Origin: an uncultured Chloroflexia bacterium
Lineage (GTDB): Bacteria > Chloroflexota > Dehalococcoidia > DSTF01 > WHTK01
Assembly: GCA_963703905.1 (NCBI GenBank)
Contig: CAVPFY010000007.1
Coordinates: 14,374-78,373 of the forward strand
Reading direction: 5' to 3'
DNA length: 64,000 bases
A model generated the notes under the pieces. That model was not told the DNA's origin, searched no databases, and worked only from the letters and a program-made list of their open reading frames with translations. Both the position numbers and the translations under genes were made by a program. Position 1 is the first letter of the stretch. The number at the start of each line of letters is the position of its first letter. Of this stretch, positions 47,497 through 54,148 are shown one piece after another.

Positions 47497-47517
47497 GCCT
47501 CCGTTTCGCCCCTCATA

Positions 47518-50512
47518 TTAGTCCAGGCCCTGCGCGGCGAGAGCGTCGGCGAGGTACTCGACGGCGTGTCTGGGCCGCCGCCCGGTGAAGTGGCCGATCT
47601 GCTGGCGGCAGGAGACGCCGGTAATCGCGATTGCGGTCGCCGTGCGACGCCGCTTCGACGGCCGGGAAGAGTCGTAGGCGCCCATGGCCCGCGAGATCTC
47701 GTAGTGCTCGGCCTCGAAGCCGAAGGAGCCGGCCATGCCGCAGCAGCCGCTTTCGACCAGCGTGACCTCGTAGCCCGGCACGAGGCGCAGGGCGGCCAGC
47801 GTCGGCTCCGCGCCCGACGACCGCCTTCTGGTGGCAGTGCGCGTGCAGGAGGATCGTCGCGGCGGCGGTCGTCGCGGAAGATGCCGGCCAGCGACCGGCT
47901 CGTCTTGCCGCCAGGCGCGCGATCAGCTCGTCGAGCAGCAGCGCCTGGTCCGCGACCAGCCGCGAGTCGTCGTCACGCAGCAGGTCCGGGTACTCGTCGC
48001 GGAAGGTGAGCAGGCACGACGGCTCGGTGCCGACGATCGGCACGCCGCGCGCGGGCGTACGGCAGCAGGGCGTCGACGTTGCGGCGCGCCCATCTCTTGC
48101 GCCGTCGTCAGCATGCCCTTCGAGATCGCCGGCCGGCCGCAGCAGCCGGCGCCTTCGGCCAGCACGACGCGATAGCCCAGCGCCTCCAGGACGCGCACGG
48201 CGGCCCGGCCGACCTCGGGGTGGTAGTAGTCGGTGAAGGTGTCGTGGAAGAGGACCACGTCGCCGCGCGGCGTCGCTGCAGCCGGCAGGCCTGCGCGTTG
48301 TGCTGAACCAGGCGAGGAAGGTCTCGCGCCGCGAAGCCGCGGCAGCGGCCGGTCGCGGTGGATGCCGCCGAAGCGTTGCAGCAATGCGCGCCCCGGCCCA
48401 AAGCCGGCGAGCGCGTTCGCGATCCGCGGCCGCACGGCTGCCGAGGCGGCTGAGCGCCGCGATGTTCGCGAAGAGGCGCGACCGCAGCGGGACGCCGCGC
48501 TCCTGGTTGCGCTGCGCCAGGATCTCGTACTTGAGCTTGGCCATGTCGACGCCGGAGGGGCACTCGGCCTTGCAGGCCTTGCACTCGACGCAGAGGTCGA
48601 GCGCCTCGTGCAGGCGGTCGCCGGTCAGCTCCTCGGGCGGCAGGACGCCGCGAAAGCGTGAGGCGCAGCAGGTTGGCGCGGCCGCGCGTCGAGTGCTCTT
48701 CGTCGCGCGTGACCATGTAACGAGGGGCACATGCCGCCTTCGAGCTTGCGACAGGCGCCCTGGCCGTTGCACTGCTCCGCCGCGCGCGCGATGCCGCCCT
48801 CGAAGCTGAAGTCGAGGAAGGTCACCGGCTCCCGAGTTGGCGTCGCCGGGCTCGAGGCGCAGGTTCTCGCGTGAAGCCCGGCGTGTCGACGATCTTGCCG
48901 GGGTTGAGCAGGCCGTTCGGGTCGAAGGCGCGCTTGACCTCGCGGAAGGCTTGGTCGAGCTTCGGGCCGAACATGCGCTCCGTGAACACGCCGCGCAGGA
49001 TGCCGTCGCCGTGCTCGCCGCTGAGGCTGCCGCCGAACTCGAGCACGAGGTCGGCGACCTCGGTGGCGATCGCCTCCATCGTCTCGAGGCCCTCGGCGGT
49101 CTTGACGTTGACCATCGGCCGGATGTGCAGGCAGCCGACGCTGGCGTGGCCGTAGTAGGCGGCCTCGGTGCCGTTGCGGCCCTCGACGATCTGCCTGGAA
49201 GCGCTCGCACGAACTCCGGCAGCTTCTCCGGCGCCACGGCCGCGTCCTCGACGAAGGCGAGCGGGCTTGGCGTCGCCGCGGACGCTCATCAGCAGGCCCG
49301 AGCCCGGCCTCGCGCATGCGCCACATGTCGCGCTGGCGCCGCCGGGTCGGTGGTCGTGACGGTGGCGTAGCCGAGGCCGCGCCGCTCGAGGTCGGCCTCG
49401 AGGCTGTCCAGCTGGCGAGCAGCCTCGGCCTCGGTCTCGCCGAAGAACTCGATGAGCAGGATGCCGCCGGGGTCGCCCTCGACGAAGTCGGCCAGGTGCC
49501 GGAAGCCGAGGCTGCGCGCGGCAGCGGCGCGACGATCGACGTCGTCGATCAGCTCGACCGCGGACGGGCCGTGCTCCAGCGCGGCGACCGTCGCCTCCGC
49601 GGCCTCGACGACGCTGCGGAAGTGCACGGCGGCCAGGCCCTTGACCTTGGGCACCGGCACCAGGCGTACCTTCGCCTCCGTGATCACGGCGAGCGTGCCC
49701 TCGGAGCCGACGATCATGCGCGTGACAGGTCCATCGGCCCGTCGTCGTCGACGAAGTCGTCGAGGTTGTAGCCGGAGACGCGGCGCATGATCTTGGGGAA
49801 GCGCGCGCTCGATCTCCTCCGCGCTGCTCGCGCCCGATGCGCGCGCAGCTCGCGGTAGAGCCTCGCCCTCGAGGCCGCGGCGACCGAGCTTCGCGTCCAG
49901 CGCCGCGCCCTCGACGCGCTCGAAGGTTGTCGAGGACCCGTCCGCGAGCACGACGTCGAGCGAGAGGACGTGGTCGATGGTCTTGCCGTAGACGACGGAG
50001 TGCGCGCCGCAGGAGTTGTTGCCGATGCCGCCGCCGATGGTCGCGCGGTTCGCCGTCGAGGGGTCGATGCGCGTACTGGAGGCCGTGCGGCGCCGCGGCG
50101 CGGTTCAGCTCCGAAAGCACGAGGCCGGGCTGGACGCGCGCCCAGCGCTCGTCGGCGTTGATCTCGAGGACTCCGCCCATGTGCGGCGAGAAGTCCAGGA
50201 CGATCGCGTGGTTGACCGTCTGGCCGGACGAGGCCGGTGCCGCCGCCGCGCGGCAAGACCGGCACGCCCGGCCTCAGCGGCGACCTGCAGGACGTGCTGG
50301 ACGTCGGCCTCGCCGGCCGGGAAGACGACCGCGACCGGCTCCATCTGGTAGATCGAGGCGTCGGTCGCGTACATGAGGCGGTAAGGCCGCTCCGAGCGCA
50401 CGCTGCCCCGCAGGCCGCGGGCCAGGTCCGCGTGCAGCGCTGCGATGTCGTCCGCCGTCAGGTCACGCGCGCGCAGCACCGTCTCGTGCAAGGGGGAGCC
50501 GCTGAGGGTCAT
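47518..50512 (-). pseudogene. YdiJ-like FAD-linked oxidase fused to Fe-S / CCG (GlcF-like) domains, heavily frame-disrupted
   Basis: The start is ATG 50512 (MTLSGSPLHE...YATDASIYQMEPVAVVFP). Pieces PVLPRGGGTGL, LEINADERWARVQPGLVL, GHASVGCLHIRP, GGSLSGEHGDGILRG, CVECKACKAECPSG and CCGMAGSFGFEAEHYEIS are spread over at least nine ORF-track fragments in alternating frames. Confidence 0.7.
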
Positions 50513-50595
50513 GCCCGCCAAACCTATCGGAGCGGGGCCAGGCTGGCAATAGGTGCGCCCGGGCCGCCAGCACCTGCCGGCCGGGCGACGGGGGT

Positions 50596-51813
50596 CTACT
50601 TCGCCGGCACCTTCGTCCGCACCGGCAGCGAGCGCAGGCCACGCAGAATGAAGGAAGGCCCCCACTCCGGCTGCTCGAAGTCCGGTTCGGGGTCCGGGAA
50701 GCGCCGCAGCAAGGTGTTGACGGCGATCTGGCCTTCGACCCGGGCCAGCGGCGCGCCGAGGCAGTAGTGGATGCCCTGGCCGAAGCCCAGGTGGTGGTTG
50801 TCCTGACGCGAGATGTCGAAGCGCTCCGGCTCCGGGAACTGGGCCGGGTCGTGGTTAGCGCCACCGAGGAAGGTGATCACGACCTGGCCCTGCTTGAAGT
50901 GTTTGCCCCTGAAGTCCAGGTCTTCGACCGGCACGCGGCTCGTCGCTTGAACAGGCCCGTCGTAGCGCAGCATCTCTTCGACGGCAGCCGCGATCAGCGA
51001 AGGGTCGTCCTGGAGGCGGCGGCGCTGTTCGGGATGGCGCAGCAGGGCCAGCATGCCGTTGCCGATGAGGTTGGTGGTGGTCTCGTTGCCGGCGACCAGC
51101 AGGAGCACGCAGGTTGCGAGCAGCTCATCCTGGCTGAGGACGTCGCTCCGGTCGCGGGCGGCAATCAAGGCCGAGATCAGGTCTTCCCGCGGGGCCCGGC
51201 GGCGCTCTTCGATGATGCCCGCGAAGTACTCGGCCAGCGCTTCGGAGCTGCTGCGGGCGCGCTCCATGGTGTCCTGCGCCTCGCCACCGCTGCCGAGGAC
51301 GCCGGCGATGTCCGTCGACCAGACCTTGAACTGCTCCCGTTCCGAAGGCGAGACACCGAGCATCTCGGCGATGACGATGATCGGCAACGGAATCGCCAGG
51401 TCCTTCACGATGTCGAGCCGGTTTGGGTCCGCGACCGCGTCCAGGAGCGAATCCGCGATCTCCTGAATGTGAGGGCGCATCGCCTCGACAACCCGCGGGG
51501 TGAAGGCCTTGTTGACCAGGTTGCGCATGCGCGTGTGGTCCGGCGGGTCGATGCTCAGCATCGTGGCCGTGCGCCGCATGAGGCTGGGGTCGCTCTGCTC
51601 CGTCAGGCGGGTGACCAGCGGGTTGTTGGAGCGCGAGCGTTCCGAGGAAAAGTGGGCATGGTCTTTGAGGATCGCCTGCACGTCGTCGTAGCCGGTGACC
51701 AGCCAGCCCTGCATCAGGTCCTGCCACAGTATCGGGTCGACGTCGCGCATGCCCTTGTAGGCGGCGTAGGGGTCTGTTCGGAACGCGGCCAGCATCGGGT
51801 TGAACATGACCAT
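50596..51813 (-). CDS. Cytochrome P450
   Basis: Intact 405-aa ORF with the heme-binding loop FGQGIHYCLGAPLA, an I-helix LLLVAGNETT and an ExxR (EEMLRY). Confidence 0.9.
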   Translation of the reverse strand: MVMFNPMLAAFRTDPYAAYKGMRDVDPILWQDLMQGWLVTGYDDVQAILKDHAHFSSERSRSNNPLVTRLTEQSDPSLMRRTATMLSIDPPDHTRMRNLVNKAFTPRVVEAMRPHIQEIADSLLDAVADPNRLDIVKDLAIPLPIIVIAEMLGVSPSEREQFKVWSTDIAGVLGSGGEAQDTMERARSSSEALAEYFAGIIEERRRAPREDLISALIAARDRSDVLSQDELLATCVLLLVAGNETTTNLIGNGMLALLRHPEQRRRLQDDPSLIAAAVEEMLRYDGPVQATSRVPVEDLDFRGKHFKQGQVVITFLGGANHDPAQFPEPERFDISRQDNHHLGFGQGIHYCLGAPLARVEGQIAVNTLLRRFPDPEPDFEQPEWGPSFILRGLRSLPVRTKVPAK

Positions 51814-51863: not shown

Positions 51864-52127
51864 GCGCCCCCTGCCCCGGGATTGCCACGGCCCTTCCGCC
51901 TTGCGGCATCCAGGGTCCGCCGTGACAGGCGCCGCCCAGGACGGACTGTGCCCTCTGGCCGACAAGCCGAAATGCCGACCAGCCGACGTGCCCGCGCCCC
52001 CTGCGCCGGGATTGCCACGGCCCTTCCGCCTTACGGCATCCAGGGCCTCGCAATGACAGAGCGCCGCCCAGGGCGACTGCCCGCCTCTGGCCGACAAGCC
52101 GAAATGCCGACCAGCCGACGTGCCCGC
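51864..52127. repeat. Tandem direct repeat, 2 x ~130 bp
   Basis: Copy 1 starts GCGCCCCCTGCCCCGGGATTGCCACGG at 51864 and copy 2 starts GCGCCCCCTGCGCCGGGATTGCCACGG at 51994. Both end CTGGCCGACAAGCCGAAATGCCGACCAGCCGACGTGCCCGC. Each contains the imperfect inverted repeat TGCCACGGC...GCCGTGACA. Confidence 0.9.
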
Positions 52128-52745
52128 TCAGCGGCCGCCGGTAACGCCGCCCGAGGCCGCCAGCAGCTCCTCCAGGTGCATCTGCCACTCCAGCGCCGTG
52201 CGGCGCTTGGCCGGCGTGTCGGCCAGCTCTTCGTAGAGCGCCTGGCCCCACTTCAGGTGCTCCTCTTCCTCCAGGAGGATGTGGTTGAGGATGCGCACGC
52301 TGGGCGCATCGCAGATCGCGTCGGTGACGGCGACGTGATGGCGATAGTAGACGGCAAGGTGTGTCTTGAGGACGCGGTGCAGGCCGGTGATGCGCAGGAG
52401 TTCTTCATCCGCCAGGGTCATTTCCTCGACGAAGCGCTCGAATTCGGGGTTGGGCGCGGCCGCGAGGGTTGAGCTGCGGAAGGTCGGCGGCGTGTCCAGG
52501 TCCGCGCCCTCCAGGGCGCGCAGCTCCGGCAGGCGCTGGCCGAGCCAGTAGTAGTGCACGGAGTCCTGATAGCAGTGCTCGCCGAAGGTGAACTTGCACT
52601 TCATGTTCGCCGAGGTCGAAGCCCACATGGCCTCGGCTGTCATGCAGGCCTTTTCGGCGTAGCGGTAGTGGATGATCCGCCGCGCACACTCCTCGACCGA
52701 AAAGGCCCCGCCGATTTGCCGCTGATCGATGCAAAGCTCGGGCAT
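52128..52745 (-). CDS. Hypothetical helical protein, possibly a degenerate ferritin-like partner subunit
   Basis: Intact 205-aa ORF. It contains FGEHCYQDSVHYYWLGQRLPELRA and LLEEEEHLKWG (one ExxH-type motif). I recognise no family with confidence. Confidence 0.4.
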   Translation of the reverse strand: MPELCIDQRQIGGAFSVEECARRIIHYRYAEKACMTAEAMWASTSANMKCKFTFGEHCYQDSVHYYWLGQRLPELRALEGADLDTPPTFRSSTLAAAPNPEFERFVEEMTLADEELLRITGLHRVLKTHLAVYYRHHVAVTDAICDAPSVRILNHILLEEEEHLKWGQALYEELADTPAKRRTALEWQMHLEELLAASGGVTGGR

Positions 52746-52797
52746 GGTCGCTCCTGTCTCAGTGCAAGCTAAACGGCTCCAGCGGCCTTCGCGCCGC

Positions 52798-53109
52798 TCA
52801 GGCCAGGCGGCTGACGGACGCCCGGGCGGTCTCGCGCACGGCCAGTTGATCCTGGCGCCGCCGCCGCGCCCACTGGCGGGCCTTATCCTTGGCCGCTTCC
52901 AGCACCACCGGGTCGGGGACGTACGCCTGGTCGATGGTGATGCAGTCGACGGGGCAGAGCTGCGCGCAGATGTCGCAGTCGATGCAGCCCTCGGCCTCGA
53001 TGACGTGCGTGCGGTGCCCCGTCCGAAAGTAGCTGATGCACTCCGTAGGGCAGTTCTTCCGGCAGAGGCCGCAGTTGATGCAGGCCTTCAGGTCGATTAG
53101 GTACGCCAA
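52798..53109 (-). CDS. 2x[4Fe-4S] ferredoxin with a basic C-terminal tail
   Basis: CINCGLCRKNCP and CIDCDICAQLCP are the two classic CxxCxxCxxxCP motifs. The ORF is 103 aa. Confidence 0.85.
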   Translation of the reverse strand: MAYLIDLKACINCGLCRKNCPTECISYFRTGHRTHVIEAEGCIDCDICAQLCPVDCITIDQAYVPDPVVLEAAKDKARQWARRRRQDQLAVRETARASVSRLA

Positions 53110-53118
53110 GCGGCGGGC

Positions 53119-53988
53119 CTACTGGTATCCGGCTTTGGAGGCGCCATCTCCGACAAGGGCCTCTTCGGCGCGCTCCATCTCTTCCGCGAAGAACGCCTTC
53201 AGCTCGTCTGCCTGGCCGGGGCTGAGCAGGGCACCGCGCATCATTTCGTGGCGGGCGTGGGCGGCCAGCGCCAGGCGCTCCTTGGCCGGGTCGCCTTCGG
53301 CCAGCAGCTTCACGAAGAAGTCGCCGATGGAGACGTGCGTGACCTCGTCCGCCCAGTTGTAGTCGTAACACAGCTCCATGAGATCGTCGCCGATCTTGTG
53401 ACCGAGCTCGCTGGTGCCCTTGAACAGGGTCAGCGCCCCGCCCTCGAGCGAAACGTTGGTCATCGAGAGGCTGACGATCGGGTTGCGCATCATGCCTTCG
53501 AACGCGCCCGCGCCGGCAGGCCGCCCGCCGGTCGCGGCGCCGTTCCCCTGAGCACCCTGGGCTGCCTGCGCCTGGGGGCCCGCGCCGCCGGCCAGGCTGT
53601 CCGGGTACTCGCCGACGACGCCGCCGGTGGCTTCGAGCACGCCCTTGCTCAGCTGAGCGTGGCGGACCTCATCCCAGGTCTGGCGGGCCATCGCCAGGAT
53701 CAGGCTCTCCGGCACGTCCCACTCTTGCCACTCGACCACCTTGCGGCTGAATGCGTCTATGCCGGCGAATTCGGCGCTCATGATCGAGCTGATAAGTGCT
53801 TTGCGCAGCTCCAGGTTCTGGGGCGCGGCGATGATCATCTCGCGCAGGTTGCCGTTGTTGAAGTTCTCGACGCCGCCGATTTTGCGCTTCAGCTCCTCGC
53901 GCTCCTCGTCGGAGACCCGCATCGAGGGGCGGTAGGGGGGTTCGCGCCGTGAGGGCGTGCTCTGTAGCTTTTCGACGATCTTGCTCAT
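53119..53988 (-). CDS. Ferritin-like di-iron carboxylate protein (DUF455-like)
   Basis: ORF track 53119..54075. ATG 53988 has the RBS AGGGAG. There are two E...DExxH half-sites: SAEFAGIDAF...WDEVRHAQL and SLEGGALT...ADEVTHVSIGDFF. The second resembles the DEigHV segment I recall for DUF455. A Gly/Ala/Gln-rich insert separates the halves. Confidence 0.5.
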   Translation of the reverse strand: MSKIVEKLQSTPSRREPPYRPSMRVSDEEREELKRKIGGVENFNNGNLREMIIAAPQNLELRKALISSIMSAEFAGIDAFSRKVVEWQEWDVPESLILAMARQTWDEVRHAQLSKGVLEATGGVVGEYPDSLAGGAGPQAQAAQGAQGNGAATGGRPAGAGAFEGMMRNPIVSLSMTNVSLEGGALTLFKGTSELGHKIGDDLMELCYDYNWADEVTHVSIGDFFVKLLAEGDPAKERLALAAHARHEMMRGALLSPGQADELKAFFAEEMERAEEALVGDGASKAGYQ

Positions 53989-54057
53989 AGGATGCTCCCT
54001 GCGCAGATTTGCGCGCTTTAGGCGATTATTGTGTCGCCCGCCTGCCCTGTCAACGCG

Positions 54058-54148
54058 GCATGGAACAAGGGACACGGGACAAGGAACAGGAACCGTGTCC
54101 AGAAGAGTCCCGGCTTGACCCCTGTTCCATGCTCCCTGTTCCTTGCTC
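54058..54148. repeat. GGAACAGG-word low-complexity inverted repeat (hairpins) between operons
   Basis: GGACACGG (54070-54077) / CCGTGTCC (54093-54100) forms a perfect 8-bp stem. GGAACAGG (54083-54090) pairs with CCTGTTCC (54121-54128), and CCTGTTCC recurs at 54135-54142. The element lies between the permease stop (54149) and the next gene. Confidence 0.7.

Follow-up and report, generated by a model that had tools for sequence, protein, structure and literature searches.

What function is served by a compact set of three genes that encodes two helical proteins with a ferredoxin between them? This question is raised by a stretch of DNA of 64,000 nucleotides (nt), hereafter the window, from an uncultured Chloroflexia bacterium of the class Dehalococcoidia (assembly GCA_963703905.1, contig CAVPFY010000007.1, positions 14,374 to 78,373 of the forward strand). 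The three genes, here called A, Fd and C, follow one another in this order on the minus strand. An earlier account made from the letters of the window, hereafter the sequence-only reading, had described three intact minus-strand genes with gaps of 9 nt and 52 nt, and the coordinates of the open reading frames (ORFs) agree with this. Our best reading, which we hold with moderate confidence, is that the trio may encode a heteromeric di-iron oxygenase or oxidase that activates O2 and is fed with electrons by the ferredoxin.

Protein A carries a predicted di-iron site

Gene A (53119–53988, minus strand) encodes a DUF455-like ferritin-fold protein of 289 amino acids (aa), which we propose as the putative catalytic di-iron subunit from a sub-threshold match to PF04305, conservation of the ligands and an AlphaFold2 (AF2) model. 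The ORF that contains A extends from 53119 to 54075 with a GTG start. We rejected this longer form and placed the start at the ATG at 53988, which gives the 289-aa product, because the homologues begin with MSK and because a promoter-like site lies inside the longer ORF. This site, TTGACA-17 nt-AATAAT (54025–54053, minus strand), is located ~37 nt upstream of the ATG and matches the consensus at 11 of 12 positions; one such site was found, against 0.1 expected in shuffled sequences. It divides the trio from upstream ATP-binding cassette (ABC) transporter genes.

Two E...DExxH half-sites had been noticed in A by the sequence-only reading. In an alignment of 46 sequences, all six canonical di-iron ligands are present and invariant: E73, E107 and H110 in the first half-site, and E182, E215 and H218 in the second. 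They reside in the motifs AEFAG (E73), WDEVRH (E107 and H110), SLEGG (E182) and ADEVTH (E215 and H218), which together make up the six-ligand E / ExxH / E / ExxH pattern of ferritin-like di-iron carboxylate proteins, with spacings of 34 and 33 residues in the two helix pairs, close to the 33 or so typical of these proteins. The Gly/Ala/Gln-rich insert, also pointed out earlier, spans residues 134–157; its length varies among homologues, and it is disordered in the model, with a predicted local distance difference test score (pLDDT) below 50. The AF2 model of A (pLDDT 78.8) contains long helices at residues 59–89, 94–120, 170–199 and 207–230, and each of these four predicted helices carries one ligand group at pLDDT 83–93. 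Judged from its sequence, A carries a complete di-iron ligand set and hence a predicted metal site.

We found 443 homologues of A, for many of which PF04305 matches have been precomputed. A itself scored 20.4 bits against Pfam DUF455 (E 4e-4), below the gathering cut-off of 34.3 bits; the match covers residues 55–129 and profile positions 56–128 only, and no NCBIfam match was found. By these scores, A is a divergent relative of DUF455 and not a model-passing member. Canonical single-domain DUF455 proteins (PF04305, about 250 aa), which occur in bacteria, plants and fungi, share the ferritin-like core; the matches of the A family to them are faint to moderate, and no C-type partner was seen for these canonical members.

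The ligand set of A is also that of a ferroxidase centre, and bacterioferritins and Dps proteins rank among the best Foldseek matches. Accordingly, A and C could be imagined as a ferritin- or bacterioferritin-like iron store from which Fd mobilises iron, as Bfd does. We consider such a role very improbable: the fold matches are weak (E above 0.05, template modelling (TM) score 0.3–0.45), A is extended at its N-terminus by roughly 55 residues and contains a long loop, heteromeric and fused architectures misfit cages of 12 or 24 subunits, and Bfd is a [2Fe-2S] protein, unlike Fd.

C as a distant paralogue of A

Gene C (52128–52745, minus strand; 205 aa), with a GGAG ribosome-binding site 7 nt 5' of its ATG, encodes the proposed helical partner of A. 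No Pfam or NCBIfam match was found for C, and its assignment comes from alignment to the A family with hhalign. A and C are each single-copy in the source genome. The C family comprises 549 homologues that we found; within the trio clade, C is always ~205 aa and strongly conserved, and its conserved features are E31, H57, D61xxH64, K127, E160xxH163 and a C-terminal SGGVTGG. In the AF2 model of C (pLDDT 77.5), two long helices, a long crossover, two more long helices and a fifth helix are predicted in a ferritin-like order.

Shallow hhalign comparison of close-homologue alignments gave no similarity between A and C. With deeper and more diverse profiles, the two families aligned over 175–202 columns at a probability of 82–90% and E 1e-5 to 2e-7; the reversed-profile control gave E 0.17 over 24 columns. 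On this alignment, C is best regarded as a distant, ancient paralogue of A. E31 of C corresponds to E73 of A, D61 to E107, H64 to H110, K127 to E182, E160 to E215 and H163 to H218. C keeps five of the six ligand positions and has an extra conserved His57, and it lacks the complete six-ligand set, the Glu of helix C being replaced by K127, which is invariant in the trio clade.

These results revise the earlier picture of C in part. The sequence-only reading had described a ferritin-like protein with one clear ExxH. The ferritin-like character stands, as EEEEH and GEHCYQDSVH are both present and C is homologous to A, whereas the count of a single site gives way, since D61xxH64 aligns to the first ExxH of A. 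C had also been likened to PaaC as a non-catalytic partner. The partnership itself is supported by the gene fusions described below; a non-catalytic role is plausible and no firmer than that, because C keeps more ligands than had been thought and is the most conserved protein of the trio (mean identity to the source-genome proteins over 45–74 loci: 66% for C, 57–61% for the halves of A and 59% for the core of Fd). In the wider C family, the ligand positions are only 40–87% conserved, indicating that the family as a whole does not depend on the site as a catalytic centre. Of 28 divergent C members, 6 gave weak DUF455 matches, which fall in the second half of the model, and some of these proteins also match Ferritin or Rubrerythrin.

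C may hold a second, non-canonical centre formed by E31, H57, D61, H64, E160 and H163, with Lys127 in place of Glu, so that A/C would be a two-centre enzyme. We regard this as rather unlikely; if true, the enzyme would be of a type not yet described among ferritin-fold proteins. A likeness of C to haem-oxygenase-like di-iron oxidases, seen in H57-x3-D61-x2-H64, was not adopted, because the predicted helix order and the profile alignment are those of a ferritin-like fold.

Foldseek comparison of the C model with the PDB returned only generic ferritin-like proteins with E above 0.05, namely YciF, bacterioferritin and the beta chain of toluene 4-monooxygenase (T4mo). The T4mo beta chain gave the highest TM-score to the C model (TMq 0.62–0.63), with a Foldseek E above 0.2. 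The hydroxylases of bacterial multicomponent monooxygenases pair two paralogous ferritin-fold subunits, alpha and beta, of which only alpha has a di-iron site; this resembles the proposed division between A and C. However, no Phenol_Hydrox match, effector, Rieske ferredoxin or reductase was found at the trio, and A is far smaller than the ~500-aa alpha subunit.

C–A fusion proteins

When 401 genomes of the phylum were searched with the C profile, C-like domains were found mostly inside long open frames. In one such protein, of 461 aa (locus L007), the N-terminal half is of the C type and the C-terminal half of the A type; the DUF455 score of this protein, 38.4 bits, passes the cut-off. An exhaustive search of 1.84 billion representatives yielded 753 C-family proteins with two architectures, a stand-alone form of ~200 aa and a long form of 410–550 aa with C at the N-terminus. 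An A-like domain follows the C domain in 46 of the 48 long representatives, and E107, H110, E215 and H218 are conserved wherever the fused A domains aligned. Because such fusions exist, the prediction that A and C physically partner is supported.

These fused "DUF455 family proteins", which occur in Chloroflexota and other phyla, thus contain the same two domains in a single chain. As in the trio, the C-type domain ends with GG(V/I)(T/S)G and the A-type domain keeps both DExxH motifs. By contrast, the order is C–A on one polypeptide, no ferredoxin is adjacent, and the examined subfamily resides in sugar-uptake operons. The fused proteins are also distant from the trio in sequence, matching the C profile at E 1e-44 or weaker.

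The operons of this subfamily deserve a separate description. At L051 and another locus, fused DUF455 proteins of 460 aa are encoded together with an SBP_bac_1 ABC transporter, an alpha-amylase-family protein and a zinc-dependent alcohol dehydrogenase. A URO-D-like protein and an unannotated ~690-aa protein come directly after the fused gene, and one locus also has a B12-binding protein. These operons may specify an undescribed sugar-modifying pathway.

Fd is a 2x[4Fe-4S] ferredoxin

Gene Fd (52798–53109, minus strand) has a TTG start and encodes a 103-aa protein with a basic C-terminal tail. Its two CxxCxxCxxxCP motifs, already recognised in the sequence-only reading, lie at C10/13/16/20 and C42/45/48/52. 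The protein passes the Pfam models Fer4_21 (41.3 bits, cut-off 35) and Fer4 (39.2 bits, cut-off 21.1), which by sequence places it among the clostridial-type 2x[4Fe-4S] ferredoxins. Fd is present in every syntenic locus.

Two known systems offer comparisons for iron-sulfur electron supply to a ferritin-fold di-iron subunit. PaaABCE, the phenylacetyl-coenzyme A (CoA) 1,2-epoxidase, resembles the trio in having a catalytic di-iron subunit, PaaA, with an altered paralogue, PaaC, and an iron-sulfur electron supply; some sources label C as "PaaA", and CoA-transferase and acyl-CoA dehydrogenase genes recur near the trio. The sequence-only reading had seen no similarity of A or C to the Paa proteins, and indeed neither has a Pfam or NCBIfam Paa match; Foldseek gave only E about 1 and TM 0.36–0.38. 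PaaB, PaaD and PaaE are absent at the trio, which has a free 2x[4Fe-4S] ferredoxin where Paa uses a [2Fe-2S] flavoprotein reductase. In the benzoyl-CoA oxygenase BoxAB, the ferritin-fold di-iron epoxidase BoxB receives electrons via two [4Fe-4S] clusters at the N-terminus of BoxA. BoxAB differs from the trio in that the BoxA clusters are fused to a flavin adenine dinucleotide (FAD) reductase and BoxB has no paralogous partner, and no similarity to the trio appeared in any search.

Conservation and distribution of the trio

The sequence-only reading had held that its account would fall if the gene trio were not conserved together elsewhere; it withstands this check. We fetched 29 loci, and in all 27 with enough flanking sequence A, Fd and C lie in this order on one strand. 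A scan of species-representative genomes found at least 80 loci; here and below, counts out of 80 are among the matches listed. The A-Fd-C order was kept in 73/73 of these loci with enough upstream sequence. The listed loci come from metagenome-assembled genomes of uncultured Chloroflexota, Dehalococcoidia or Tepidiformaceae, with one labelled Planctomycetota. This synteny, together with the homologue numbers, far exceeds chance. In closed genomes of one further genus (g311), the module is rearranged and duplicated as A-A'-x-C-Fd-Fd' (locus L072, 5096–8353), with A paralogues of 253 and 244 aa, an 81-aa four-Cys zinc-ribbon-like ORF, a C of 209 aa and two tandem 2x[4Fe-4S] ferredoxins; the three components persist despite the rearrangement.

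Two loci depart from this pattern. On one metagenomic contig (L020, 8001–8810), an A homologue with 63% identity has neither Fd nor C within 8 kb; either its partner genes are split off elsewhere in the genome or A acts alone there. At another locus (L019, 6787–7554), the public gene call is a 255-aa ORF on the opposite strand, and tblastn shows A on the plus strand. The public call is an error, made in a contig of high GC content, that would conceal the trio from automated analyses of gene neighbourhoods.

Stand-alone C was found in 34 of the 401 genomes sampled from the class. Because four genomes of the sister genus (93–96% complete) and most families of the class yielded no trio in this sample, the trio is an accessory module with a patchy distribution. 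This pattern bears on the possibility that A and C hydroxylate a macromolecule or cofactor, such as a tRNA base or a quinone. MiaE and Coq7, small stand-alone ferritin-fold di-iron hydroxylases of the same Pfam clan, are precedents; in addition, the trio has no fixed pathway neighbours and its protein sequences are highly conserved. We nevertheless judge this role improbable, as the trio is scattered even inside one family, a housekeeping modification is hard to reconcile with MarR control and neighbours of catabolic type (see below), and the Pfam and NCBIfam scans reported no MiaE or COQ7 model match.

The gene for COX1, subunit I of haem-copper oxidases, is present in 34/34 genomes with the trio, and the trio occurs in 0/151 genomes without COX1. 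This co-occurrence fits, weakly, an O2-linked function.

Neighbouring genes

The flanks of the trio vary between loci, and no fixed pathway neighbours were found. We counted neighbours by ORF clustering over 32 loci and by tblastn over the 80 listed loci. A 437-aa luciferase-like monooxygenase is encoded directly downstream of C and on its strand in 15/32 and 35/80 loci, respectively. A divergent MarR gene was found in 11/32 and 24/80, a short-chain dehydrogenase/reductase gene in 18/32 and 24/80, an acyl-CoA dehydrogenase gene in 11/32 and 3/80, and a family-III CoA-transferase gene in 6/32 and 9/80; one family-III CoA-transferase gene lies 6.5 kb from the trio in the window. Together with the oxidoreductases and CoA enzymes encoded nearby, MarR is a weak pointer to a small compound of hydrophobic or acyl-CoA type.

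The divergent MarR in 24 of the 80 listed loci would also suit a detoxifier of peroxide or oxygen. In this reading, an OhrR-like MarR would bring about the induction of A/C under oxidative stress, and A/C would work in the manner of rubrerythrin as a ferredoxin:H2O2 (or O2) oxidoreductase. Rubrerythrins are ferritin-fold di-iron proteins that are fed by small redox proteins and detoxify peroxide, which provides a precedent for this mode of electron supply. The trio is confined to genomes with aerobic respiration, one C-family member matches Rubrerythrin weakly, and one data source names a fused relative "rubrerythrin". However, A and C have neither the paired CxxC motifs of a rubredoxin-type domain nor, in the source proteins, a Rubrerythrin Pfam match. 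A defence role would be expected to be more widespread than 34/401 genomes, and the sister genus lacks the trio; moreover, the genes that often flank the trio encode oxidoreductases of catabolic type and not stress proteins. We consider detoxification unlikely on these grounds.

The frequent monooxygenase genes raise a different possibility, that the trio serves a neighbouring luciferase-like or P450 monooxygenase as an auxiliary module for redox supply or maturation, providing it with electrons or repairing or assembling its cofactor. At many loci the very next gene after C, on the same strand, encodes a monooxygenase (luciferase-like in 35/80, P450 in 2/80), and an orthologue of the luciferase-like protein is enriched in genomes with the trio (about 23/34 versus 46/367). 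This orthologue is also common without the trio: in family f21, 22/25 genomes have it and 0/25 have the trio. It is absent at the same threshold from the g311 trio genomes and is encoded on another contig in the source genome. We therefore rejected the luciferase-like monooxygenase as an obligate partner, given that it is widespread without the trio and lies on a separate contig in the source genome. Fused C–A proteins occur without either monooxygenase, and P450s rarely use 2x[4Fe-4S] ferredoxins as donors. An auxiliary role thus seems quite unlikely.

At the source locus itself, the sequence-only reading had placed a P450 gene after a 264-bp tandem repeat, and both features were recovered. 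The P450 (50596–51813, minus strand) is CYP107-like and matches the p450 model with 133 bits. P450 was not tallied over the 32 loci and was seen in three of them (the source locus, L003 and L058). As a conserved partner it was rejected, being present in 2/80 loci and restricted to the source genus and close relatives; it is a lineage-specific downstream neighbour. The repeat (51864–52127, no strand assigned) starts directly after the C stop codon and consists of 2.0 copies of a 132-bp period with 91% matches, 264 bp in total. Each 132-bp unit is made of two sub-modules (about positions 12–66 and 87–132), and both are dispersed, with at least 50 occurrences each, on all large contigs of the genome. 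The repeat therefore belongs to a dispersed family of intergenic elements resembling repetitive extragenic palindromic (REP) sequences and is not a local oddity; it marks the 3' edge of the trio module. On the other side of the trio, the window encodes Opp-type ABC permeases and a family-5 solute-binding protein.

Downstream of the P450, a gene for an FAD-linked oxidase / Fe-S protein of the GlcD-GlcF type (47513–50665, minus strand) is broken over at least three reading frames, and its FAD_binding_4, FAD-oxidase_C and CCG pieces fall in different ORFs. This indicates frameshifts, arising either from a pseudogene or from indel errors in the assembly. The source assembly comprises 3.9 Mb in 8 contigs with a marker completeness of only 60%, and its COX1 match is much weaker than those of relatives (E 3.5e-88 versus about 1e-160). 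The weak COX1 match and the low marker completeness fit widespread indel errors.

Proposed function of the trio

Taken together, the gene structure, the conservation of the ligands, the homology of A and C and their fusion, the synteny and the phyletic pattern are best accommodated by the di-iron oxygenase or oxidase. In this proposal, A and C would form a heteromeric ferritin-fold enzyme with a canonical carboxylate-bridged di-iron centre in A. C would be an obligatory partner subunit, with its own site altered by the Glu-to-Lys change, and would serve structure, substrate binding or ferredoxin docking. Fd would pass two electrons to reduce the diferric centre, and the reduced centre would activate O2 and oxidise an organic substrate, which it might hydroxylate, desaturate or epoxidise. 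We infer metal binding, this direction of electron flow, the dependence on O2 and the class of substrate from the features above. The module would be self-contained with its own promoter, and a divergent MarR repressor accompanies it in many lineages, suggesting induction by a small molecule, probably a hydrophobic or acyl-CoA-type compound.

Several points weigh against this proposal. A fails the Pfam membership test for DUF455, and sequence searches of the PDB with A, with C and with the profile of each returned nothing meaningful. The Foldseek matches of the A model in the PDB are generic ferritin-like proteins with E above 0.05 (bacterioferritin, PaaA, aldehyde-deformylating oxygenase and R2lox) and did not point to any particular family, and the proposal presupposes that the ligand groups on the four predicted helices of A converge on one site. 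The conservation of C, which exceeds that of A, is uncommon for a subunit with a purely structural role. On the side of electron supply, no reductase gene adjoins the trio, as had been remarked earlier, the upstream genes being those of the Opp-type transporter, and the fused C–A relatives examined have no adjacent ferredoxin. As for COX1, 62% of the genomes sampled from the class have it in any case, and related genomes do not count as independent observations. Because the genes around the trio are variable and of general types, they suggest a class of substrate only weakly. Finally, a literature search found no functional study of DUF455 (PF04305, COG2833) or of the biochemistry of any member, in line with the earlier remark that these proteins have no established function.

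Significance

This analysis adds a residue-level map of the ligands of A and C, in which Lys127 takes the position of a Glu, and shows that no other component of the trio is as well conserved as C. It also contributes the association of the trio with COX1, a promoter-like site ahead of A and the non-obligate nature of the luciferase-like neighbour. Alkanes, aromatics, CoA thioesters and amines are all subject to difficult oxidations by ferritin-fold di-iron enzymes, and, to our knowledge, each newly characterised family of them has so far brought new chemistry. The trio packs a putative catalytic subunit, a partner paralogous to it and a dedicated ferredoxin of the 2x[4Fe-4S] type into a compact module that has its own promoter-like site and should be easy to express. 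It has been kept in at least 80 uncultured aerobic Chloroflexota species, in the setting of Dehalococcoidia-class bacteria of soil and groundwater. Working out its function would de-orphan a Pfam family, DUF455, that spans bacteria to plants and fungi, and would provide a first function for the superfamily. A further gain would be to learn how Dehalococcoidia, which are abundant in soil, apply oxygen to organic matter.

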